A stretch of 64,000 nt of DNA from an uncultured Cytophagales bacterium (lineage in GTDB: Bacteria; Bacteroidota; Bacteroidia; Cytophagales; JAAEPT01), in NCBI GenBank assembly GCA_963736575.1, contig CAVTPD010000001.1, positions 156,941 through 220,940 on the forward strand. Direction: 5' to 3'. The notes under the pieces were generated by a model, which had not been told where the DNA came from, ran no database searches, and was given only the letters and a program-made list of their open reading frames with translations. Both the position numbers and the translations under genes were made by a program. Shown piece by piece: positions 2,876 through 34,389 of this stretch (positions are counted from its first letter, which is position 1; each line of letters starts with the position of its first letter).

Positions 2876-4039
2876 TCAACGGGTGGCGATCACCTGCGAT
2901 GTGAAGCCTTTCAAATAGGACGTTTCCGGAAGGGTGATCAGGACGGGATGGTCCGGCCTCTGGGTGTGCTCCGCAACCAGCCGCAGGGACTTTTTCGCAT
3001 CGACTGAAGCGCTGGCGAGATTCTCCAGGAAAAGCTCCCGGGATGCGTGGTGTGAGCAGCAGAAAGTGGATAGCAATCCGTCTTTTTCCAGAAGCTTGAG
3101 AGCACGGAGATGTATTTCCTTGTAGCCGCGCATCGCATCCATGAGGGACTTTTTATTCTTCGTGAAGCTCGGAGGATCAAGAATGACGAGGTCGTATTCC
3201 GGTTTGGCTGATTTGAGGAAATCGAAGACGTTTGCTTCAATGACTTCAATTTCGAGCTGGTTCAGTTCGGCGTTTTTCCGAGCTGCGGCGCAGGCTGGGC
3301 CGGAAATGTCGACAGCGGTGACCTTGGCTGCTCCGGCTTTCGCGCATGCGAGGGCAAAGCCACCCTGATTGGTGAAGCAATCGAGAACGCGAAGGCCCTT
3401 GGAAAGTTTCGCGACTTCCGCGTGAGCCTGGAGTTGGTCGAGATAGAGGCCGGTTTTCTGCCCGTCGATGAGGTCGATTTCGTAGATGGTCCCATTGGCA
3501 TCGACATTGAAAGATCCCGGGTTTTCACCATGGATCAGAGTGATCGATTGCTCCATGCCTTCGGCTTTACGAGAGGGGGAATCATTGCGGAGCGTGATGG
3601 ACATCGGGTCCAGGACGGCGACCAGCGCATCGCGGATCAGGTCGACCCGCATATCCATCGCGAGGGTGGTGGTCTGGACGCAGAGGTGGTCACCGTATCG
3701 ATCAACGATGAGCCCCGGAATCCCATCGGACTCCGACCAGACGATCCTGCAAAGGTTTTCATCAAGTCCCGGTGTCTCGATTCTCAGGTTCAAAGACTGG
3801 CGGATGCGCCGGGTAAAGAAATCAAGATCCAGATCCTGTTTTCTTCGCGAGAATCGACGGGCGACGATTTGCGATGCGGGATTGTAGATGGCGGAGCCTA
3901 GCGGGCGGTCGCGAAAGTCCTTGAGCGAAATCACATCGCCGGGCTGTGGATTCCCGAAAGCTTTTTTTATTTCAGAAGCATAGATCCACTCGTGGCCGTG
4001 GAAAATTCGGGCACGGGGGGCGATAATAAGGCCGGGCAT
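2876..4039 (-). CDS. rlmI: class I SAM-dependent rRNA methyltransferase, RlmI family (23S rRNA m5C1962 type)
   Basis: 387-aa ORF with a PUA-like N-terminal part and a Rossmann methyltransferase core (VLDCFTNQGGFAL...VILDPPSF), as in the RlmI/YccW family. Confidence 0.8.
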   Translation of the reverse strand: MPGLIIAPRARIFHGHEWIYASEIKKAFGNPQPGDVISLKDFRDRPLGSAIYNPASQIVARRFSRRKQDLDLDFFTRRIRQSLNLRIETPGLDENLCRIVWSESDGIPGLIVDRYGDHLCVQTTTLAMDMRVDLIRDALVAVLDPMSITLRNDSPSRKAEGMEQSITLIHGENPGSFNVDANGTIYEIDLIDGQKTGLYLDQLQAHAEVAKLSKGLRVLDCFTNQGGFALACAKAGAAKVTAVDISGPACAAARKNAELNQLEIEVIEANVFDFLKSAKPEYDLVILDPPSFTKNKKSLMDAMRGYKEIHLRALKLLEKDGLLSTFCCSHHASRELFLENLASASVDAKKSLRLVAEHTQRPDHPVLITLPETSYLKGFTSQVIATR

Positions 4040-4102
4040 GGGCGCACTCTAGGTTTTAAAGGCCAGACTCCAAGGAATAAGAATCTTAGCCAATTGCCTC
4101 GG

Positions 4103-4900
4103 CTATTTTTCAAAGATGAGGAGATGCTGCCAAGGTAGGCCGGGCTTGTTTTCCAAAAAGGTGAAGCCTAGCGCTTCGAACTCGCGGATGGCCTGTGCGG
4201 CCGTCATCTTGTGGAGGCGCTTGATCGGGACTTCAGGATCCTCGGCCCGATACTCGAGGAGATAGATCTTTCCGCCCGGTTTGAGGGCGGTGTGTAGGGA
4301 ACGGAGCATCTCGGCAGGATGGGAAAACTCGTGATAGGCATCGACCATCAGGGCGGCATCAAGGCTGTCTTCCGGCAGTTCAAGTGATTCAATGGTGCCA
4401 AGATGCGGTCTGACGTTAGCGATCTCGAGTTTTTGAGATTCGGATTTCAGGTGGTCGAGCATTTCCTGCTGAATATCGACGGCGATGACCTCGCCATCCG
4501 GAACAAGGGGAGCGATCCGGAAACTATAGTATCCCGAGCCAGCACCGATGTCTGCGATCACCGTATCGGGCGCAAGATCGAGAAGTGCGATGGCTCTGGA
4601 AGGGGCTTCTTCCCTTTCCCGGGCATCACGTTCCAGCCAACCGATGCCAGGGTGACCCATGACATGCGAAATCTCCCGGCCCATGAACACCTTTCCGATT
4701 CCGTCCGGCGAAGCCTGGGTAAGGGTATATTCGGGAAAGCCTTTTTGCGCCTCATCGAGCGACGGTAGAAAGTCGTCGTCCACGGTTTTCGTAACCTCGT
4801 TTCTCAGCAGAACCAAGGGGATGAGGAAAATAGCGAGGAGGATGATGGGGATGAGAACAAGATATCGGGAGCTCATGGGAAGGGACCAAAATTGTTCCAC
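4103..4900 (-). CDS. membrane-anchored class I SAM-dependent methyltransferase
   Basis: 265-aa ORF with an N-terminal TM helix (YLVLIPIILLAIFLIPLVLL), SAM motif I (IADIGAGSGYYS) and a methyltransferase-type-11-like core. The start could be the Met at 4876. Confidence 0.7.
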   Translation of the reverse strand: MEQFWSLPMSSRYLVLIPIILLAIFLIPLVLLRNEVTKTVDDDFLPSLDEAQKGFPEYTLTQASPDGIGKVFMGREISHVMGHPGIGWLERDAREREEAPSRAIALLDLAPDTVIADIGAGSGYYSFRIAPLVPDGEVIAVDIQQEMLDHLKSESQKLEIANVRPHLGTIESLELPEDSLDAALMVDAYHEFSHPAEMLRSLHTALKPGGKIYLLEYRAEDPEVPIKRLHKMTAAQAIREFEALGFTFLENKPGLPWQHLLIFEK

Positions 4901-5031
4901 AGAATCGCGATAAATCCACTATGGTCCTCTCGATTGATGACCGGTGGGAGTGTGCCGAAAGGTAGTTCCGCTTTTCGCGCTATGAGGTTGACCGGGCATG
5001 GGGTGGCAGGTAATATCCCGGCAATTCGCCG

Positions 5032-5583
5032 TTGAACGACGGCATCGATTTCGTGGTTACCGATTGTCCCATACGAGTAGGAAATTTTGAAGGTTTCAGT
5101 TGGATTCGCTGCGAGGGCAAAGGTTCTTTCTTGAACAGTCCGGCGGTCAAGGAATTCGGCGAGTCGCGCATTTCGGCAGGCGAGAAGTGCGTCGTGATGG
5201 ATCTGGAGTCGTGCACTGGCATGGACTCGACGTTCATGGGCACGCTCGCAGGACTTGCCAGCAGGCTTTCGGAAAGGGGAGGTGATTTTCAAGTGGCGAA
5301 CGCAGGCGAGAAGAACAGGAATTCCTTGGAGGATCTGGGTTTGGATTTTCTGATGGAAATCGATCCGGCGGATGCGGTTTGGAAGGATGTGGAGGAAAAA
5401 GCCAAGGATTTCCTCGAGACCAAGGTTGCCGGGATGAAGGCCGGGACGGAGCTTCATTCGCGTCATGTGCTTGAGGCCCATCAGATTCTTTCCGACGCGA
5501 ACGAAGGAAATCGCGAAAAATTCTCAGGAGTGGTCAAGATGCTGGGTGACGAACTGGCGGAAAAATCACGCAATTCCCAATAG
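5032..5583 (+). CDS. STAS domain protein (anti-sigma-factor antagonist-like) with a C-terminal extension
   Basis: 183-aa ORF with a STAS-like core (VVMDLESCTGMDSTFMGTLAGL...LEDLGLD). Its stop abuts the start of the PP2C phosphatase gene (5583/5584). Confidence 0.65.
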   Translation: MNDGIDFVVTDCPIRVGNFEGFSWIRCEGKGSFLNSPAVKEFGESRISAGEKCVVMDLESCTGMDSTFMGTLAGLASRLSERGGDFQVANAGEKNRNSLEDLGLDFLMEIDPADAVWKDVEEKAKDFLETKVAGMKAGTELHSRHVLEAHQILSDANEGNREKFSGVVKMLGDELAEKSRNSQ

Positions 5584-7035
5584 ATGGCCGCCATGGATGA
5601 TTCCGCGTGGTGGACACTTGGCGTATGCCTGCTCTTAAGTGTGGTCCTGCTGTTTGCTTTGCAAAATCAGCGCCGAAAAGCGAAACGAATCCGGGCGGCC
5701 TTCCGTGCGATGGCGGGCGAAGAGGAGCGTATGTTTACGTTTCTTCACAATCTGGGCCTGGCCATCGGCAAGGAGCCGACCGATGGAGCTCTTTCGAAAA
5801 TGATCGTGGATGGTGTGTTAAAAGTCGTGGGCGCGCGGGGCGGTGCGATCTATTACGAGGCGGCGGATGCGGGTTTCCTGAATCCGGCCTATGTTTCGGA
5901 AGACTGCCCTCCGTTGGTAGCGATCCCGAAAGAGGTCGCTGAAAAAAACGAGGCGGATCCGAGAACACTGGAGAGCCACCTGCGGCGGGAGCGGGTTGCG
6001 ATCGATACAGGCATGATTGGAAAAGGCCTGAGCTTGGAAGAACCGGAACATGTGGCGGACGTGAAGAGCCACGAGGCAATGGTGGACCGCCCGGAGTTTT
6101 ATACGGATGATGTTTCCGCGATGGTTTCGCCCTTGCGTTACGCAGGAAGAGATCTGGGGGTCCTTGCCGTCGCGCGACGGCATGCCGACGGTCGATTTTC
6201 CCAAAACGATTTCGCGGTCTTTCGTTCCGTTGCGGAACAGTCCGCTTTCGCGATTGGCAATGCCCGCGTCCACAGGGACGCGAACGAGAAGAAAGCGATC
6301 GAGGGGGAGCTAAGAAACGCGCGCGAGGTGCAAAATGTTCTGCTGCCACAGGAGGACCCCAAGGTTGTTGGTTTCCGTGTGAACGGGACGAACCTTCCTG
6401 CGAAGATAATCAGCGGGGACTATTATGATTACATCGATCTGCATGATGGAAAGCTGGGCGTCGTCATCGCTGACGTCTCAGGAAAAGGGGTCTCGGCAGG
6501 GCTGCTTATGGCAATGTGCCGGAGCCTGTTGCGCGCCGTTTCACTTACCAACGCATCGCCTTCCGCTGTCCTTGCCGCAGTGAACGGATTTCTTTTTCCG
6601 GACATTCGCGAGGACATGTTCATCAGTCTCATCTACGGAATCCTTGATCCCGAGAGCGGGACCCTTACCTACGCAAGAGCAGGACACGAGCCTGCAATGG
6701 TGTTCCGAAAAAGCTCCGGATCCGTTGAGATCTCGAAACCCCGGGGCCTTGCCGTGGGTATCGATGGCGGGTCCGTCTTCGAGCGGGTGACGAAAGACGA
6801 AGTCCTTCATCTCAATTCCGGGGACTGCGTTCTCCTGTTTACCGATGGTGTCAAGGAGGCTCTAAACGCTCATGATGAAGAATTCGGAATGGAACGCCTG
6901 GCGGAGGTTTTTCGTAATGCGGCACCGATCGGTGCGGAGGCAATTGTGGATGGCGTCCAGGGAGCGGTGAGTGATTTCACGGGAGACGGGCCCCAACTTG
7001 ACGACGTGACAATCGTGGCGATCGAGAAGAGGTAA
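5584..7035 (+). CDS. GAF domain-containing SpoIIE/PP2C-family serine phosphatase (RsbU-like)
   Basis: 483-aa ORF with an N-terminal TM helix, a GAF-like middle region and a C-terminal PP2C region (ISGDYYDYI...VIADVSGKGVSAGLLMA...LLFTDGV...DDVTIVAIE). Confidence 0.85.
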   Translation: MAAMDDSAWWTLGVCLLLSVVLLFALQNQRRKAKRIRAAFRAMAGEEERMFTFLHNLGLAIGKEPTDGALSKMIVDGVLKVVGARGGAIYYEAADAGFLNPAYVSEDCPPLVAIPKEVAEKNEADPRTLESHLRRERVAIDTGMIGKGLSLEEPEHVADVKSHEAMVDRPEFYTDDVSAMVSPLRYAGRDLGVLAVARRHADGRFSQNDFAVFRSVAEQSAFAIGNARVHRDANEKKAIEGELRNAREVQNVLLPQEDPKVVGFRVNGTNLPAKIISGDYYDYIDLHDGKLGVVIADVSGKGVSAGLLMAMCRSLLRAVSLTNASPSAVLAAVNGFLFPDIREDMFISLIYGILDPESGTLTYARAGHEPAMVFRKSSGSVEISKPRGLAVGIDGGSVFERVTKDEVLHLNSGDCVLLFTDGVKEALNAHDEEFGMERLAEVFRNAAPIGAEAIVDGVQGAVSDFTGDGPQLDDVTIVAIEKR

Positions 7036-7056
7036 AGCCAAGAGATTTTCAAAAGG

Positions 7057-7573
7057 ATGACTGCGGAAACGAAAATGGGAGATCTGATGGCGGAGATGCC
7101 GGGTGCGCGGAGGGCGCTGTTTGCGAAATATCATCTCGGTGGCTGTCAGAGCTGTGCATTCGATGATTCCGAAACGGTCGGGCAACTATGTGAGAGGGCG
7201 GAGTTGGACGCGGAAGAGGTGATGGCGCATCTTTTGGAAAGTCATAAACATGACCTGACCATGCTGATGGAGCCCGGTGAGGTTGCTGCAATGGAGGATG
7301 TGATGTTCGTGGACGTGCGGACGCGGGAGGAATATCGAGGCGGTGAAGATCGAAGGCGCGCGATTTTTTACGCCGGAGCTTCAGGAGGAAATTTTCAAAC
7401 AGAAGCCGGGCGGGCTGGTGGTGTTATACGATCACACCGGAAAATACGTGCTCGATCAGGTCGCCTGGTTCAGGGGCCATTCCATTCAGAACGCTTTCGG
7501 CTTAAACGGTGGCATCGATGCCTGGAGCCGCGAAGTGGATGCCAAGGTGATGCGATACCGTGTCGAGGTATAG
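7057..7573 (+). pseudogene. DUF1858-like redox-domain + rhodanese-domain protein, one frameshift as sequenced
   Basis: ORF 7057-7686 starts MTAETKMGDLMAEMPGARRALFAKYHLGGCQSCAF... and loses sense after VDVRTREEY. The rhodanese part continues in ORF 7343-7573 (KIEGARFF...GGIDAWS). Removing one base at 7335/7336 restores EEYEAVKIEGA. Confidence 0.7.
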
Positions 7574-27955: not shown

Positions 27956-28663
27956 ATGAGAGATGAATTTGCCAACCGCCATTCCATGCACCTCACCGTG
28001 CTCAACCTCCTCGACAAACCCGAATCCAAAGCCGTCTGGGAGGACAACAACCCAATTAAATTCACCGAAAGGGCCGGCGAATTCCGAACCAAGGTCACCG
28101 CCCTCACCGCCACCATCGCGGAAAAAACCAACATCATCACCGGCCAGGCCGCGGAAAAGGATCGCGAGGAAACCGAGCTTGAAGTCCTCGCCCAAGAGCT
28201 CGGCATCACCTTCGCCGAATACCTCGGCGACCAGGGCCGCGAGGGCGAGGCCGCCGAGTTCGAGCTCTCCCTCTCCAGATGGCAGGGCCTGCGCGATACC
28301 GCCCTCCTCGCCAAAGCCACCCTACTCAAGACCCGCCTCACCGCCGCCCTCGCCGCAGACGCACCCGGCCTTGCGGAATACGGCATCACCCCCGCCGATC
28401 TCACCCTCCACACCAAGGAGCTCGCCGACTACGAAAAAGTCATCCAGAACCCCTCCGGAGCCATCGCCACCCGCAAGGCCCTCACCGCCGCCCTCCGCCC
28501 GGACTTCCGCGAAGTGCTCAACATCCTCCTCTCCATGGACCGCCTCGTCCTCCGCTTCCGCGGCACCCCCGAAGGCAAGGCCTTCGCCGCCAACTGGAAA
28601 ACCGCCCGCGCCGTCCGCGACCTCGGCAGCAACAACCCCGACCCCGAGCCTCCCACACCGTGA
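27956..28663 (+). CDS. hypothetical protein (acidic, predicted all-alpha), strongly C-ending codon usage
   Basis: 235-aa ORF with a consistent codon pattern; 25 of 40 sampled codons end in C. The overlapping P/S/T-rich ORFs in other frames look like shadows. I recognise no family. Confidence 0.55.
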   Translation: MRDEFANRHSMHLTVLNLLDKPESKAVWEDNNPIKFTERAGEFRTKVTALTATIAEKTNIITGQAAEKDREETELEVLAQELGITFAEYLGDQGREGEAAEFELSLSRWQGLRDTALLAKATLLKTRLTAALAADAPGLAEYGITPADLTLHTKELADYEKVIQNPSGAIATRKALTAALRPDFREVLNILLSMDRLVLRFRGTPEGKAFAANWKTARAVRDLGSNNPDPEPPTP

Positions 28664-28759: not shown

Positions 28760-30522
28760 TGGAAATCCGGATCCCGACCGAAACCCCACTCCCCCATTGA
28801 CACCACCCCCCCTTTTCCCCACTTTCCCGAATGAAAATTCCGCCCCACACATCAGCGAGCGTTGATGCCATGGACATTGTTCGGGAAGAAAAAAAACTAT
28901 GGCTACCTCATCGACTGGAATGTTCCGCCCAAGAGATGCAATGCGAACTTCGGTGAACGACTACGACAACGGAGAAGAAGACATTCCGCTGTGCTTGGGA
29001 CATGGGAGGGCACCCCCAGATCACGCGAGTCGATGGACCGGGTGTCGTGAGTTGGTCGACGACCGAGAAGGGCAATGATATCTAGTTTCCAATCACATGG
29101 CAACTTTGACGAAGCTGGACAACTTCCCTTCGAACGGAATCGAAATCCCTGCCTCGATCTATCACACGCGCAACCTTACGGAGCAACGAGTAGAGCCGGA
29201 ACGGGGATCCAAGGTATCAATAAGGATGCTCTGGAACAGCCGCCCTGTTTCTTCATCGCCGAAACACAAACCAATCTAGCACAATACGCTCCATTGCGGA
29301 GTGGAAGACAACACCTTCTTTGACGTGGATTACCTTCGCCGCTCGCATCGAGCAATGTTTTCCAAGAAACCTCAGAATCACGCTAACTATGAGTAGCAGA
29401 ACTCTCAGAATCGAGAAATATTGCGCATGACGCACTTTGAAAGAGCGTGTAGCTCTAGATCCTCGTAAAGGTTGATCACATGCGTTCAACGACACGTTCG
29501 CTCTTCTTAGCGAACGGCTGGATGATCAAAGATCTACTATGAATCTTTCAGAGAGAATTTCGCATTGGTATCAACACGGAATGACGATGCACATTTGACG
29601 CCGCTATCCAGCAGCGCCATTCATGAAACTTTCTGTAGAAGAGGGGATCCCCCAGAACTGTCAAAGCGCACTTTCAGCAGAAAGCCCACCGGAGAACTTG
29701 AGAGGCTTTGCGACTTGCGAAATCGAGATATTGGATAGGCTCACGGAGGATTACGATTTTTCGAACATAACTCTCGCATTCAAGAAGGGGAGCTCGATGC
29801 GTTGTTCAGCGCGTCATGCCAAATTCGCATGAGGTTCTAAAAACGGTGACGCGTAGAATCGACATGTTCATAGTGATTACGACAGCCAGCACTCGGTGAG
29901 CGCCTCATTGCCCATAAAAGAACAGTGGATGGCCTCACCTATGTTGAGCACATGTCGCGGAAGGATGCATGCCCTCTGCTTGAGGAAGGGAGTTGTAGCG
30001 TCTATAAGGTCAAGCCTTTGGTTGCAGAAGGCACCAGTCTGAGAGGCACCTAAGAAAGAGTCCACCAAGAAAAAAAGAACGCGAACAAGGCGTCGCTCCT
30101 AACGCCTGACCCGCCGCGAATTCCAGCCGTCATGATCGCTACACCCACTGCAGTCGAAGCCTCGCTCCCAGTCAGGCGTAGGAGGACTTCGACGTTACTC
30201 AAAAAATGAATCCAAAATTACTACGCATGGTTGGGCAGATCATTCTCAGACCCCAGAGGACAACTATTTAGATTCTGGTCTACCGGGATTGGACACAACC
30301 AGCTTTCTCGTCAGTCCGTGCGAAGGTGAAGGTTATTTGGGGACGCTTACGTTTCAAGTTGGGCTCGATTGGGCTTCGATCACTGCGGATATGAGCAGGC
30401 ACGGCAGTTTGGGAAGTCTTATAGAACCAGCGAATTCGCGATCGATGGAGCGCGGAAGAGGGCCTTGATTATACGAAGAAAGCTGTGGTGGAACCAAGAG
30501 CCCGCGGGAGCAAGGTGCCTTT

Positions 30523-30711
30523 TCAATCCGGGAAGACGATGGCGCGGTGGCCGTCGATGATGGTGCGGTCGTGGACGTGGTAGCGGATGCCGCGGGCGAG
30601 GGCGGCGCGCTCGCAGTGGCGGCCGAGGCGGGCGAGGTCGTTGGGGGAGTGGAAGTGGGAGACGCGCTCGACTTCCTGCTCGATGATGGGGCCGGCATCG
30701 AGATCCGCGGT
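30523..30711 (-). pseudogene. orphan 3'-terminal fragment of purU (duplicate of 31761-31949)
   Basis: 189 nt identical to the 3' end of the intact purU except for two synonymous mismatches (30526, 30532). It encodes ...TADLDAGPIIEQEVERVSHFHSPNDLARLGRHCERAALARGIRYHVHDRTIIDGHRAIVFPD*. Confidence 0.9.
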
Positions 30712-30785
30712 CGGTGACACCATTGACACTTTTCGGCAGGGAATCCCGGACTTGCGACGCTTCCCCGATTCGCTATCCTTCCGCC

Positions 30786-30992
30786 ATGCAAGTTCAAGCC
30801 ACAGTCGAAGATCCAACCCATTTACGGCTCATCAAGCCATTGGATGTGACTGTAGGAAGTGTGGTCGTTCTCGAGATTGTGGACACGGTCGGGAACGGGA
30901 CTTTCCCGGATTCTTCCGCCGCTCTCCTGGATTCCGCCTACGGAGCCGAGGAGCCGGACTACTCGGGATCAGGAACAGCGATTGAAAATTGA
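30786..30992 (+). CDS. putative antitoxin of the adjacent PemK/MazF-family toxin
   Basis: 68 aa from the ATG at 30786 (MQVQATVEDPTHLRLIKPLDVTVGSVVVLEIVD...EEPDYS). Its stop directly abuts the toxin start (30992/30993). It is small with an acidic C-terminus, as in MazE/DUF104-like antitoxins. Confidence 0.5.
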   Translation: MQVQATVEDPTHLRLIKPLDVTVGSVVVLEIVDTVGNGTFPDSSAALLDSAYGAEEPDYSGSGTAIEN

Positions 30993-31340
30993 GTGATGCT
31001 TTCGGAAGGTGATCTTATTGTGGCCGAACTGCCCCAGGCAGACGGTGGAACCAAGCCACGCCCGGTCCTACTGCTCAAAGAGTTGCCAGGATTCGGAGAT
31101 TTTTTAGTCTGCGGAGTCAGTTCCCAGATCCATCAGGCGCAGGATGGTTTTGATCGGATTATCGCATCCACCGACGATTTTTTTGACGCTACGGGACTCC
31201 AGGTCACCTCCGTAGTCCGACTGAATTTTCTCGCGACGCTGCCCACCCGACGAATGACCAGGCATCTCGGGCGAATCCCGTTCCACGTTCTTGGCGGCTT
31301 ACAATCCACGTTGGCCGCGCACCTTACACAAACAAAGTAG
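30993..31340 (+). CDS. type II toxin-antitoxin system PemK/MazF-family toxin
   Basis: 115-aa ORF. GDLIVAELPQADGGTKPRPVLLLKELPGFGDFLVCGVSSQ...SVVRLNFLATL matches the PemK/MazF fold signature. The start is GTG 30993 or ATG 30996. Confidence 0.75.
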   Translation: MMLSEGDLIVAELPQADGGTKPRPVLLLKELPGFGDFLVCGVSSQIHQAQDGFDRIIASTDDFFDATGLQVTSVVRLNFLATLPTRRMTRHLGRIPFHVLGGLQSTLAAHLTQTK

Positions 31341-31760
31341 GAGGACAGGATTCTGCGTTGAAGGCGCGGTGGCAAACCGGCGGTTCCTGAGTCAGGGCAA
31401 TAAAGCCAGGGAAAGATTGAAACAGCGTGTGCCTCTTGAGTCCCGGCAGGGACGATCAGAAAGTAGCCGGGGGTGGAGTGAAACGGAACCCCCGGACACA
31501 TCCCGCAACGGATTTACGGGCAAGGGATGGATGCCGCCACCTGTTCCGCCCCCGCCGCAGCCCGCCAACGGCACGGCAGGTTTGCGGCTTCGGCGGTGCG
31601 CGTAGGGTAACGGGGCCTGCCGCTTGCCGCCATGATCCATGCACTGGTTACCCCGCATTCCGCTGCGCTGCATACGGGGCTACGCTCTTGCCACCCCTCC
31701 GGGGTTAACTGGTGTTTCCGTTGGGGTGGGCGGAAGGATTCCGCCTCTCCTTGAGGGGGA
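31341..31760 (+). ncRNA. candidate structured RNA / recombination scaffold (unclassified GC-rich ORF-free segment)
   Basis: G+C is 71/100 by hand count at 31501-31600. Seven perfect 5-7-bp GC-rich helices are packed into 420 nt (coordinates in findings). There is no credible ORF. The strand assignment is tentative. Confidence 0.3.
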
Positions 31761-32618
31761 TCAGTCCGGAAAGACGATGGCGCGGTGGCCGTCGATGATG
31801 GTGCGGTCGTGGACGTGGTAGCGGATGCCGCGGGCGAGGGCGGCGCGCTCGCAGTGGCGGCCGAGGCGGGCGAGGTCGTTGGGGGAGTGGAAGTGGGAGA
31901 CGCGCTCGACTTCCTGCTCGATGATGGGGCCGGCATCGAGATCCGCGGTGACGTAGTGGCAGGTGGCGCCGATGAGTTTCACGCCGCGCTCGTGGGCCTG
32001 GCGGTAGGGGTTCGCGCCGATGAAGGCGGGGAGGAAGGAGTGGTGGATGTTGATGATTTTCCCGGAGAACTCCTGGCAGAAGCCGTCCGGCAGGATCTGC
32101 ATGAAGCGGGCGAGGACGATGAGCTCGACGTCCTGGGCGAGGAGGAGATCGCGGATTTCGGAAAAGCCTTTTTCGCGCAGCGGGCCGTCCATCTCGATGT
32201 GGTGGAAGGGGAGGCCGGCGCGTTTGGCGATGTGGGCGCAGTTGTCGCGGTTCCCGATGAGGGAGGTGATCTCGATGGGGAGCTCGCCGAGCTCGGTGCG
32301 GAGGAGGATTTCGTTGAGGCAGTGGTCGGTCTTTGTGACGAGGACGGCGGTGCGCATTTTATAAGGCAGCTCGCGGAAGTGCCAGGTGGCGCCGAGGGAG
32401 CGGCCGAGGGTGCCGAAGCCGGTTTTGAAATCCTCGACGGTGACATCGAGTCCGGAGGTATCGATCTCGAGGCGGGCGAAGAATTTTTTCCCGATCTGGT
32501 CGGAAAACTGGCTGAACTCGGTGAGGTTTCCCTGATGGGCGGCGACGTAGGAGGCGATTTTCGCGACGATGCCGGACTGGTCGGGAGAGGATAGCTTGAG
32601 GATTAGGCCGGGGCGCAT
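31761..32618 (-). CDS. purU: formyltetrahydrofolate deformylase
   Basis: ACT-like N-terminus (MRPGLILKLSSPDQSGIVAKIASYV) plus a formyl-transferase core (INIHHSFLPAF...HYVTADLDAGPIIEQ). The ORF extends to 32672, but the Met at 32618 is the likely start. Confidence 0.9.
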   Translation of the reverse strand: MRPGLILKLSSPDQSGIVAKIASYVAAHQGNLTEFSQFSDQIGKKFFARLEIDTSGLDVTVEDFKTGFGTLGRSLGATWHFRELPYKMRTAVLVTKTDHCLNEILLRTELGELPIEITSLIGNRDNCAHIAKRAGLPFHHIEMDGPLREKGFSEIRDLLLAQDVELIVLARFMQILPDGFCQEFSGKIINIHHSFLPAFIGANPYRQAHERGVKLIGATCHYVTADLDAGPIIEQEVERVSHFHSPNDLARLGRHCERAALARGIRYHVHDRTIIDGHRAIVFPD

Positions 32619-32643
32619 GGTTTGCGGGACGGGGTGAAGGGTA

Positions 32644-34389
32644 TCATTCCGCAGGGTAGAAACGGGCGGCACCTTTGCGAAGGTATTCGGATGAGAGGGA
32701 GGCGTTGTCGAGGATGTTTTCCGGGGTCAACCGCTTCCTCCAGCCGTGGTAGGCGGCGAGTGTCTCGAAGGCGGCGTTGAGCGATCCCTGCATGGGATTG
32801 TGCAGGCGCAGCTCCACCTCGACGTTTTCCGGTAGGCCAAGTGGATGGAGTAACCGGGCGGATTCAAGATCGAGGAGACCGTCGCGGTAGAGCGAAGGCT
32901 CGCTGAGAGCGAGACCCATGAGCATATAGTGAGGGTGAAGCCAGCGCACACCCATGACCTCAGTTCCGTTTGCCGTGTAGCCGGCGCCGGGCATTCCGGT
33001 TTCCCCTGCGGAAAGTCCGAATATTCCACGGCGGGCCGAGGCGGATTCCGGCCAGTTGTCAGCAGGATAGCTTTTCTGGAGATCGAGGAGGTTTTTCCGT
33101 GCATCCGGCCAGGTGATCCCCGTAACGAGGTCGGGATCCATGCTGTCGAAGTCGGGGTAAAAGAGGCTCTGGAGCTCTGCAATGAATCCGATTCCCCGGT
33201 AAATCTCGCCGCTGGGTGTCATTTTCCCTCGTGGCTCGCGGCCGGGAACCATCGCTTCAAGCGCCAGGACCAATGCCGTTTCGCCTCCCCAGTCGCGCCA
33301 GCTTGCTTCGAGAGGGGTCGAGCCGTCATCGAGAAATCCGTGGCTGATCCAGCCCTCGGAGTCGGTGACTGCGTCGAAATCAAGCCTGTCGACGAAAGCT
33401 CCGATCTCAGCCTCTTCACCCGGCAAATCCAAGATCCGTGCGGCGAGCAAAAGGGACTGAAGGGCGATGGCGGTATCCACGGTGCTGAATTCCGTTCCCG
33501 GATGAATGGTGGTATTTCCCGACGAGTTGATGTGGGTGAAATGGGGGAAAAACCCGGCGGCTGTCGGGAGCGTCCGGATCGCATCGAGCGTTTCCCGGAG
33601 CTCTCCGACGACTCTGCTCCGATCAATCATCCCCTCGACGGCGCCCAGCGCGCTGCCCAGCGCCTGCATGCCTGTGGAGGCGATCGAATCGAACTCACCC
33701 CTGGGCAAGTGGCCACGATCCCGGGTCATGCCGCGACCTCCCTCGTGGCAGCGGCGGAGTTTTCCCAACGAGATCCGGAAGGCCCATTCCTCCAGTGAAA
33801 TTTCCGGACGTTCCGCGATGAAGCCGATTGATGAAAGTTTCAGCGAGCACCCTGGCTCCGCGATCCAATTCATGAACTTGATCCGCCCGAGCCCTTCGGG
33901 TTCGATTGGAAACGAGAAAGCGGAGGTTTCTTCATTGTCCATCTGGACAGCCGCACTCCAGACGACTTTCCGCTCAATATCGGCCAGCTCGAGACGCAAG
34001 GATCCGTTTCCACTGGCATTGACGGTGAGGCCACGGATGCCACAACGTTTTTCCGGGGGGCCTCCGAGACCGATCAGATCCGTGGGGTCAAGCGTCCTGC
34101 CCTCCTGTGATGCCAGTCCTGCGAGCGAATGCCAGGCACCGGTCCATTCACCCTCCGGGCGGACATGGATGATGCCGTTTTTCGAATCGATCCTTTCCTC
34201 GCCAAGGCCCATCCATCCGAAGTCGGATGCGAAATGGGTGAAGTTCTCGAAAGGGTTGATCATTGGCGCGGCATCGGGCCTGTCGCCGGTGAATGAAATC
34301 GTGTAGTCGATGATCGGCTGCCAGATCCGCTCGGCGGTAGCCATGGCCGGAAAGGCGAAGAAAAGGCAGGCGATCGGTAAACGGAACAT
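32644..34389 (-). CDS. secreted hypothetical protein, possibly an (alpha/alpha)6-barrel glycoside-hydrolase-like protein
   Basis: 581 aa from the Met at 34389, with a signal peptide (MFRLPIACLFFAFPAMATA). The C-terminal half has a repeating helical pattern reminiscent of glucoamylase/DUF3131-like folds. The assignment is weak. Confidence 0.45.
   Translation of the reverse strand: MFRLPIACLFFAFPAMATAERIWQPIIDYTISFTGDRPDAAPMINPFENFTHFASDFGWMGLGEERIDSKNGIIHVRPEGEWTGAWHSLAGLASQEGRTLDPTDLIGLGGPPEKRCGIRGLTVNASGNGSLRLELADIERKVVWSAAVQMDNEETSAFSFPIEPEGLGRIKFMNWIAEPGCSLKLSSIGFIAERPEISLEEWAFRISLGKLRRCHEGGRGMTRDRGHLPRGEFDSIASTGMQALGSALGAVEGMIDRSRVVGELRETLDAIRTLPTAAGFFPHFTHINSSGNTTIHPGTEFSTVDTAIALQSLLLAARILDLPGEEAEIGAFVDRLDFDAVTDSEGWISHGFLDDGSTPLEASWRDWGGETALVLALEAMVPGREPRGKMTPSGEIYRGIGFIAELQSLFYPDFDSMDPDLVTGITWPDARKNLLDLQKSYPADNWPESASARRGIFGLSAGETGMPGAGYTANGTEVMGVRWLHPHYMLMGLALSEPSLYRDGLLDLESARLLHPLGLPENVEVELRLHNPMQGSLNAAFETLAAYHGWRKRLTPENILDNASLSSEYLRKGAARFYPAE

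Follow-up and report, generated by a model that had tools for sequence, protein, structure and literature searches.

In all likelihood a fossil MITE with ISAs1-family ends fills the helix-dense gap between a PemK/MazF toxin gene and purU

In the window, the whole 64-kb stretch of DNA analysed here, the segment 31341-31760 fills exactly the gap between the stop codon of a PemK/MazF toxin gene (31338-31340) and that of purU (31761-31763, minus strand). With 63.8% G+C against 56.2% across the whole window it is a GC-rich spacer, and a sequence-only reading had taken it for a candidate structured RNA, possibly coupled to the toxin module, or for a recombination scaffold. What is this segment, and does its position beside a toxin gene mean anything? 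The observations that raised the question are sound. A recount of 31501-31600 gives the same 71 G+C in 100 nucleotides, none of the ORFs of 93-140 aa found in several frames is credible, and the seven perfect helices described in the segment are all present. The locus is laid out as follows.

30523 to 30711, minus strand: duplicated purU 3′ end, 189 nt, 99% identical to 31761-31949
30786 to 30992, plus strand: antitoxin-like ORF, 68 aa, no Pfam hit
30993 or 30996 to 31340, plus strand: PemK/MazF-family toxin (Pfam PF02452, E 1.6e-09)
31341 to 31392, no strand assigned: spacer left of the element, of which 31345-31366 also occurs in element-free relatives
31393 to 31733, plus strand: very probable decayed copy of a MITE of about 348 bp, delimited by family profile and blastn, 3′ limit approximate
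31734 to 31760, no strand assigned: spacer right of the element, holding most of the hairpin 31729-31745 and possibly a target duplication remnant
31761 to 32672, minus strand: purU (formyltetrahydrofolate deformylase type) with ACT and Formyl_trans_N domains, convergent with the toxin gene, its start likely at 32618

The exact toxin and purU proteins of the window have no database record, both possible start codons having been tried. The toxin homologues P0005 and P0006 lie at different loci or on short contigs. Three relatives (L001, L002 and L004) carry the same antitoxin/PemK cassette, its toxin 93% identical, with purU 41 bp away and the element absent; from the whole segment only 31345-31366 is found in them. 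The window, L017 and L015 thus have the element at this site, which is empty in L001, L002 and L004; this also disposes of the segment being simply the conserved 3′ region of purU. The empty site of L001 is not clean: it also lacks some 32 nt of spacer that flank the element in the window and L015, namely 31367-31392 and its right-hand counterpart, and 31367-31392 is confined to lineages that carry the element. Because this flanking spacer is also missing, the target duplication of the window copy can only be guessed, as TTCCTGAGT on the left versus TTCCCGTGACT on the right in L015.

Homologues of the segment were found at 14 loci in Verrucomicrobiae MAGs, over about 31390-31706 and at 73-94% identity; the same range is given by blastn of the window element against the copies in L015-L028. 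The carriers are one MAG with copies on five contigs, which stand for at least three insertion sites, another with copies on two, and MAGs of Prosthecobacter debontii and Akkermansiaceae. A search with nothing but the terminal repeat added five members that are more divergent. Intact copies come from metagenomes as well as from Verrucomicrobiae MAGs; they measure 347-350 bp (378 bp where a 30-nt insertion is present), and each end has a terminal inverted repeat of 20-23 bp that differs from CAGGGCGATCAAGCTAGGGA by 0-3 mismatches. Perfect 10-bp target-site duplications flank the family at five or more independent sites (one of 9 bp): GACTCACCAT at L016, TTCATACCCG at L018, GCTGAAAGTC at L022, the 9-bp ACATGCATG at L025, and CGGAGCAGGG at L148, L133 and L060. 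Duplications of 10 bp also occur at more than 12 sites of sister families with the identical repeat, and the same repeat bounds many other MITE families of 157-266 bp that have 10-bp duplications. No gene, the toxin included, is common to the flanks of different copies in an all-against-all comparison of flanking ORFs, and no conserved transposase, reverse transcriptase or nuclease lies beside them; only ORFs overlapping the element match, in mixed frames. Short and non-coding, with inverted repeats, a fixed target duplication, dispersed copies and the ends of an autonomous element, the family has traits that define bacterial MITEs (summarised in PMC3733652 and PMC6382973).

Intact copies are near-palindromes that fold strongly on both strands, at z-scores of −9.1, −6.8 and −10.2. 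Their arms continue as inverted repeats inward past the terminal repeats, and the family profile finds each copy in reverse orientation as well (E 1e-6 to 1e-29). The richness in hairpins that had suggested an RNA derives from this full-length imperfect palindrome, with the terminal repeats, H2 and H5 as long-range helices arranged concentrically and H1, H3 and H6-H9 as side hairpins (the helices are listed below).

The copy in the window matches a local nhmmer profile of the family over 31393-31722 (profile positions 1-334 of 348, E 1.3e-93), and its ends, with the 5′ repeat placed on the left by convention, are the following.

31393 to 31412, plus strand: 5′ terminal inverted repeat CAGGGCAATAAAGCCAGGGA, 17/20 match to the consensus
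31714 to 31733, plus strand: remnant of the 3′ terminal inverted repeat, placed by alignment with L015, whose 3′ repeat is better, and with intact copies

The 3′ repeat is heavily mutated: its complementarity to the 5′ repeat is gone, and a repeat search allowing up to 5 mismatches gave no match there. Because this repeat is lost, the window copy is very probably immobile. No second copy occurs within the 64-kb window. Decay is also apparent in the fold. The minimum free energy of 31341-31760 is no better than that of shuffles (z +0.34 on the plus strand, −0.96 on the minus strand), nor is that of the element alone (z 0.0 and +0.2). Helix density is only marginally above chance: dinucleotide shuffles contain 19.8±4.5 perfect stems of 5 bp or more where this copy has 29 (a count reached by 5% of them), and 1.6±1.3 of 7 bp or more where it has 5 (reached by 4%). 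Compared with the orthologous copy of L017 the element is 93.3% identical, the toxin 98.6% and purU 96%; the element region changes at the rate of the adjoining spacer and not of the genes. On the combined evidence of profile, ends and family, 31393 to about 31733 is in all likelihood a fossil copy of a non-autonomous DNA transposon (MITE) of about 348 bp with ISAs1-family ends.

The assignment of the ends comes from the repeat itself. An identical 20-bp repeat bounds elements of 1258-1297 bp that encode proteins of 389-395 aa, and these proteins match NCBIfam NF033564 (ISAs1 family transposase) with 350 bits against a cutoff of 70. Ten full-length elements carry the repeat at both ends (L136 141-1410, L092 50-1346 and eight others); they lie on short contigs, where a target duplication is not seen. 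In published descriptions, ISAs1 elements have inverted repeats of 14-22 bp that begin with CAGGG, and direct repeats of 10 bp (PMC11946415); ISArsp11 is one example of the family (PMC6305408). The repeat and 10-bp duplication of the MITE family agree on both points. No Verrucomicrobiae genome carrying the MITE was found to have an ISAs1 element whose repeat matches. Copy L019 does contain a nested, related ISAs1 element (399 bits), but its repeat is another one, CAGGGCCGACGCATC, which diverges after the first six bases. We considered whether the interior arose from the insertion sequence by simple deletion and rejected this: the MITE interior has no sequence in common with ISAs1 elements of the same ends beyond the repeat.

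We propose the following course of events. An ISAs1-type DDE transposase (NF033564; DDE_Tnp_1_assoc and DDE_Tnp_1 domains), which would recognise 20-bp terminal repeats starting with CAGGG and make 10-bp target duplications, is predicted from the shared ends to act on the MITE and would have mobilised it in trans. The element would then have inserted into the short stretch that separates the toxin gene from the convergent purU, in the ancestor from which the lineages of the window, L017 and L015 descend. Its present-day effect would most likely be passive, as a stem-loop-rich 3′ UTR shared by the two genes or as an insulator between them; such roles have been described for other bacterial MITEs and REPs.

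The interior of the element requires separate consideration, since the family has a consensus structure of 64 pairs in nine helices, with 94% of cells paired. In the window copy, which retains 57 of the 64 pairs despite the loss of its 3′ repeat, the parts are these.

31440 to 31453, plus strand: hairpin H1 (GUCCC-GGCA-GGGAC), the first of the seven helices, paired in 98% of family cells
31455 to 31466, plus strand: 5′ strand of H2, pairing with 31680-31691 and containing the invariant GTAG (31463-31466)
31467 to 31495, plus strand: hairpin H3/H4 (CCGGGGG...CCCCCGG), the second of the seven, with four pairs changed on both sides
31519 to 31628, plus strand: central domain, in which H5 (31519-31537 with 31610-31628) encloses H6 (31562-31580) and H7 (31584-31596)
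31650 to 31706, plus strand: most conserved block, with H8 (31651-31679), the 3′ strand of H2 (31680-31691, containing CTAC) and H9 (31693-31705)

Three of the seven helices first described are kept across the family, at 31440-44/31449-53, 31467-73/31489-95 and 31651-55/31675-79, the last (the fifth in order) being the core hairpin H8. The remaining four are lineage-specific; the seventh, the hairpin GGCGGAAGGATTCCGCC at 31729-31745, occurs in the window and L017 and neither in L015 nor in intact copies. Eight of the 12 pairs of H2 are intact in the window copy, and its column 66/371 shows C-G, A-U and G-C. H5 is 92% paired and rich in G-U pairs, and both partners have changed in three of its pairs; the same holds for four of the five pairs of H9. 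In H8, CAU/AUA becomes GGU/ACC in the subfamily found by way of the terminal repeat, and the loop of this hairpin accommodates an insertion of 37 nt. Only the block 31650-31706 yields 31-mers that recur across many unrelated metagenomes.

Could this interior of about 300 nt be functional in its own right, as a structured RNA or single-stranded DNA structure that is either cargo carried along by ISAs1-type ends or a piece domesticated by the host? It would be, for example, a stabiliser, a terminator or an RNase target in the 3′ region shared by the toxin and purU genes. Over the family, both partners have changed in 16 pairs; shuffles give 8.5±1.7, with 16 attained in 0 of 500, and sliding the partners gives 3-4. 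The alignment behind these counts has 13 sequences from roughly 7 lineages and is also the one from which the structure was derived. Recent substitutions avoid the paired columns: within groups of closely related copies 10 of 512 paired columns vary against 32 of 663 unpaired ones (Fisher p 0.006), and among the window, L017 and L015 copies alone 4 of 128 against 17 of 163 (p 0.013). The covariation and this avoidance suggest that the interior is not merely junk, and a structural role, as RNA or as single-stranded DNA, is possible but unproven. However, the window copy evolves like the adjoining spacer, and the two strands are equal in consensus energy (−53.2 vs −53.9 kcal/mol), as a DNA palindrome is expected to be; pairs changed on both sides number 14 on the forward strand versus 9 on the other, a difference that is not decisive given the equal energies. 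The preference of the sequence-only reading for a plus-strand transcript is therefore not borne out. Nor do searches for an RNA gene give support. No Rfam 15 model hits 30200-32000 at E up to 10, none relevant reaches the gathering score anywhere in the window, and six loci with intact copies return nothing at E up to 1; scans for promoters and terminators, run on the window copy and on two intact ones, revealed no conserved signal. The one RNA run found, a lake metatranscriptome, has a contig that holds the cassette of an element-free relative and ends at 31364; a discrete transcript was not found. We consider a functional interior unlikely, with a small but real chance of being right, and the same small chance attaches to its fullest form, in which the interior would be a mobile ncRNA gene or single-stranded DNA structure under purifying selection that travels on ISAs1-type ends, and the window copy would have been kept because of a service of its fold to the convergent toxin and purU transcripts. 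Of the structured-RNA proposal, then, the part that stood is a family of homologues with a conserved, covarying secondary structure; the family itself is a transposable element with terminal repeats, target duplications and ISAs1 ends.

A second possibility is a REP, REPIN or BIME-type element, moved by a RAYT tyrosine transposase and not by a DDE transposase. The GTAG at 31463-31466 precedes H3 on the plus strand and the CTAC at 31680-31683 follows H8, so that GTAG precedes H8 on the minus strand; both are invariant in the family, as in GTAG-tagged REPs, and one verrucomicrobium at least, Opitutus terrae, is rich in REPs of the GTAG type (PMC3733652). The two GTAG modules are inverted copies of one another, and the position between convergent genes is typical for REPs. 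However, a search of 185,579 species genomes for the exact core hairpin gave 14 matches, every one inside a full or partial 348-bp copy and none a free-standing GTAG hairpin of 20-40 bp. Moreover, CAGGG repeats and 10-bp duplications delimit the mobile unit, and HUH/RAYT transposition (IS200/IS605 family) is not known to make such duplications. We regard a REP-type origin as very unlikely.

The idea of a recombination scaffold, or an att-type site of the cassette between the purU 3′ repeats, draws on the 189-nt repeats that flank both cassette and element, and on L017 and L015, which have at the same spot further partial repeats and another cassette. The purU 3′ end looks like a hotspot, where small toxin-antitoxin cassettes accumulate between copies of the gene's own end. 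But the bracketed cassette exists in the three empty-site relatives without the element, and the element exists at many unrelated sites with repeats and 10-bp duplications of its own, so that a scaffold role has an even slimmer chance.

Slighter again are the prospects of an RNA belonging to the MazF/PemK module, whether decoy, substrate or antitoxin-like, which had been offered as speculation. Its one point in favour is position, directly 3′ of the toxin gene and on the same strand. Against it, a 93%-identical toxin occupies the same place without the element, the flanks of the other copies have no gene in common, the toxin included, and the close toxin homologue P0008 lies in a different context, also without the element. 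Unlike type III antitoxin RNAs, 31341-31760 contains no tandem repeats, and the MazF motif ACA is neither depleted nor enriched, with 4 occurrences against 3.7±1.6 expected. Because close relatives have the same cassette beside purU without the element, its link to the toxin is accidental, with no specific relation to the toxin-antitoxin pair. A decayed protein-coding gene, suggested by the overlapping 93-140 aa ORFs, has next to no chance of being right, for homologous copies share no common frame, differ by single-base indels and others that are not multiples of three, as expected of non-coding DNA, match in translation in different frames and on both strands, and have defined ends with inverted repeats.

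The reading of the segment as a fossil MITE removes the lead of a structured RNA next to MazF: because the segment would be a transposon fossil, there is no toxin-linked RNA mechanism to seek here. The result also gives Verrucomicrobiae a MITE family defined by its ends, its target duplication and the transposase family that probably mobilises it, which helps to annotate the mostly uncultured genomes of this class and to explain assembly breaks. With its covariation and its constraint after insertion, the interior of the family may be more than junk.

Among known systems, the large structured RNAs of Rfam (HEARO/IscB omega RNA, OLE, GOLLD, ROOL, raiA), some of which associate with mobile elements, are likewise GC-rich, multi-helix and 300-400 nt long, but the element has no Rfam 15 match, no associated protein gene and equal consensus energy on both strands. 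GTAG-tagged REPs, REPINs and BIMEs share the GTAG beside GC-rich stem-loops, the two inverted modules and the convergent-gene location, whereas here the 348-bp element moves as a whole and has ends and duplications of the DDE type. The ISAs1 family (ISAs1, ISArsp11, H-repeat/IS1358 type; PMC11946415, PMC6305408) has the same CAGGG start, 20-bp repeat and 10-bp duplication; the window element lacks the transposase and the insertion-sequence body, and the ISAs1 element seen in the carrier L019 shares only the first six bases of the repeat. The closest likeness is to bacterial MITEs (ERIC/IRU, Correia/NEMIS, RUP, Nezha, MITEAba12), which are also small and non-coding, with terminal repeats of 15-30 bp, a fixed-length duplication, several copies per genome, gene-adjacent positions, a strong hairpin and the ends of an autonomous insertion sequence. 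Titles and abstracts searched in the Verrucomicrobia MITE literature mention no such element. At 348 bp the present family stands at the upper end of the usual sizes, and it differs in having an interior unrelated to the insertion sequence of the same ends, a full-length pseudo-palindrome with internally conserved, covarying helices, and hosts among the Verrucomicrobiae.

The segment 31341-31760 is bounded by the stop codons of two convergent genes:

30993-31340, + strand, PemK/MazF-family toxin gene (Pfam PF02452, E 1.6e-09)
31761-32672, - strand, purU, with ACT and Formyl_trans_N domains

Its G+C content is 63.8% versus 56.2% for the window. The sequence-only reading had described 31501-31600 as 71/100 G+C, listed seven helices and seen no credible ORF; the recount gave the same G+C, all seven helices lie where it placed them, and none of the 93-140-aa ORFs present in several frames is conserved on comparison with other copies. 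Helix density of the window copy is only marginally unusual, with 29 perfect stems of at least 5 bp versus 19.8±4.5 in shuffles and five of at least 7 bp versus 1.6±1.3, counts equalled in about 4-5% of shuffles. Folding energy of the segment is no better than that of shuffled sequence (z +0.34 and -0.96 on the two strands), and the element alone gives z about 0. The segment contains no tandem array.

Comparison with relatives shows this DNA to be an insertion. The closest homologue of the toxin, P0001 (93% identical), is encoded on three metagenome contigs (L001, L002 and L004) in the window's gene order: a 63-aa purU-end fragment, a 68-aa antitoxin, the toxin and convergent purU. There, 41 bp separate the toxin and purU stops, and only 31345-31366 of the segment is present; almost the whole 420-nt segment is therefore additional in the lineage of the window. 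Some 32 nt of spacer next to the element is missing from these loci as well, so that either the element was deleted there or the ancestral spacer was longer. The insert is present at an orthologous locus, L017 (93.6% identical over 31211-31900), and at L015, where it also adjoins purU.

The insert belongs to a dispersed family. Of the 31-mers sampled from it, those shared with many unrelated metagenomes (estuary, soil, plastic, seawater, sediment) come almost entirely from 31650-31706. The exact 24-mer 31660-31683, searched in one genome per species over 185,579 species, occurs at 14 loci, all in Verrucomicrobiae MAGs, including five contigs of one MAG, two of another, three of Prosthecobacter debontii and an Akkermansiaceae MAG; homology in each spans about 31390-31706 at 73-94% identity. 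Where ORFs overlap the element, matches between copies fall in differing frames and on either strand, and the element is therefore non-coding. Intact copies have terminal inverted repeats of 20-23 bp, consensus CAGGGCGATCAAGCTAGGGA, and duplicated target sequence on either side:

L016, GACTCACCAT
L018, TTCATACCCG
L022, GCTGAAAGTC
L025, ACATGCATG (9 bp)
L148, L133 and L060, CGGAGCAGGG

Copies on three contigs of one MAG (L019, L022 and L027) have identical flanks and the same duplication, GCTGAAAGTC; the insertion therefore sits in a larger sequence repeated in that genome.

Scanning metagenome contigs with the terminal repeat alone gave at least 120 loci. Among them are at least five further, more divergent family members; numerous other elements, 157-266 bp long and non-coding, that share these ends and have perfect 10-bp duplications; and at least ten elements of 1258-1297 bp, also with these ends, that code for proteins of 389-395 aa. 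A scan of two of these proteins (L136, L092) against NCBIfam gave NF033564 ("ISAs1 family transposase") with 350 bits, versus a cutoff of 70. In L019, the 3' repeat of the MITE copy is split by a different, complete ISAs1 element (4021-5290, 1270 bp; repeat CAGGGCCGACGCATC, 10-bp duplication TTCCCTAACT), whose transposase has 390 aa (399 bits). ISAs1 elements are characterised by inverted repeats of 14-22 bp that begin with CAGGG, together with a 10-bp direct repeat (PMC11946415), as in ISArsp11 (1,306 bp, repeat CAGGGCTGATGCAAAGTCG, duplication GGAACAGCAC; PMC6305408). The interior shows no similarity to insertion sequences with the same ends. By every sequence-level criterion the element qualifies as a MITE, which was presumably mobilised in trans by an ISAs1-type transposase. 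We read the segment as a fossil of such a MITE, in a family that probably depends on ISAs1. Among the metagenome loci L029-L148, the 20-bp repeat CAGGGCGATCAAGCTAGGGA also bounds many unrelated short elements of 157-266 bp, and these often have a higher A+T content than the copies in Verrucomicrobiae; a single ISAs1 lineage seems to have given rise to several MITE families in different hosts.

The family profile matches 31393-31722 (positions 1-334 of 348, E 1.3e-93), and the ends of the window copy are:

31393-31412, 5' terminal repeat, recognisable (17/20)
about 31714-31733, 3' terminal repeat, mutated beyond recognition

The 3' repeat is also beyond recognition in L017 and better kept in L015; our guess at the target duplication is TTCCTGAGT, on the left in the window, versus TTCCCGTGACT, on the right in L015. 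Window and L017 are 93.3% identical in the element, 94.2% in the left spacer, 98.6% in the toxin and 96% in purU. The window copy is old and almost certainly immobile.

The element forms an imperfect palindrome over its full length, which accounts for its helix-dense look: every copy matches the profile in reverse orientation, and the arms are inverted well beyond the terminal repeats (for example L148, 1-99 versus 262-348). Folding of intact copies is far stronger than that of shuffles (z -9.1 in L148, -6.8 in L018), and the opposite strand behaves likewise (z -10.2). The helices of the element are:

Terminal repeats, concentric long-range helix
31455-31466 with 31680-31691, concentric long-range helix H2
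31519-31537 with 31610-31628, concentric long-range helix H5
H1, H3/H4, H6, H7, H8 and H9, side hairpins

Of the seven helices first listed, three (H1, H3 and H8) are shared across the family and the remaining four are not. Discrete internal insertions (33 nt in L028, 37 nt in the H8 loop of L032, 30 nt in L133 and L060) fall at loop or junction positions, leaving helices intact.

The element bears no relation to the toxin-antitoxin pair beyond adjacency. An RNA coupled to the MazF-type module had been suggested; the same cassette exists without the element, the flanks of copies beyond L017 and L015 share no gene, toxin included, and ACA is neither depleted nor enriched in the segment. The last 189 nt of purU is duplicated around the antitoxin/PemK cassette (window 30523-30711 and 31761-31949), with these copies in other loci:

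L017, 4568-4756, 5806-5951 and 6657-6845, three purU 3'-end copies
L015, 7534-7624 and 6452-6640, two copies
L001, 5537-5728 and 6387-6575, purU 3'-end copies

In L015 a further toxin-antitoxin-like cassette (ORFs 6874-7350 and 6674-6877, minus strand) lies between the partial copy and the intact gene. The purU 3' end looks like a hotspot for small cassettes, which build up between duplicates of that end. The repeats are 99% identical in the window and about 86% in L001; that they are nearly identical in both the window and L017 points to gene conversion. A tract of about 1.6 kb with lower G+C (about 28900-30500, 44-55%), immediately upstream of the purU-end fragment and with no convincing ORF, may be degraded foreign DNA of this hotspot. 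Just after ORF 27956-28663, a 27-nt inverted repeat (28675-28701/28732-28758, 96% complementary, each arm itself a palindrome, AAGGGGTTTGAAACCCCTT) could be a further short repeat element or else a pair of terminators. The sole gathering-score Rfam match in the window, 5_ureB_sRNA (RF02514; 37166-37456, - strand, 65.6 bits, E 9.6e-15), belongs to a family described in Helicobacter, antisense to ureB, and may simply reflect urease gene conservation.

A minority reading, which we consider unlikely, is that the interior is a functional fold, of RNA or single-stranded DNA. Several observations point to selection on the structure. Among 13 members, five of them recovered by a search that did not use the core, 94% of cells in the 64-pair consensus are paired, and 16 pairs changed on both sides versus 8.5±1.7 in shuffles (0/500 reach 16) and 3-4 with slid partners. 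Four of the five H9 pairs changed on both sides; H8 switches from CAU/AUA to GGU/ACC and accommodates an insertion of 37 nt in its loop. Variable columns avoid pairs, both in four groups of close copies (10/512 paired versus 32/663 unpaired, Fisher p 0.006) and in the window, L017 and L015 (4/128 versus 17/163, p 0.013). Other points speak against a dedicated RNA. The sample is small and its members related, and the structure came from the alignment on which it was tested. Consensus energies are equal on the two strands, and scans saw no conserved promoter or terminator. No Rfam 15 family matched the segment, whether at gathering score or with E relaxed to 10, or the intact copies, and the sole RNA run found covers a relative without the element. 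What survives of the structured-RNA candidate is a family with covarying helices; ends, duplications and dispersal make it a MITE.

The covarying interior and the purU 3' cassette hotspot are the sole points perhaps worth further work. By analogy, the present-day effect of the fossil MITE is likely that of a stem-loop-rich shared 3' region, as bacterial MITEs and REPs between convergent genes act (summarised in PMC3733652). REP-like modules within the element are a lead, although the core hairpin was never seen outside the full element (14/14 matches embedded): H3 and H8 are each preceded, on opposite strands, by an invariant GTAG, and in GTAG-tagged REPs the GTAG likewise precedes a stem-loop (PMC3733652).
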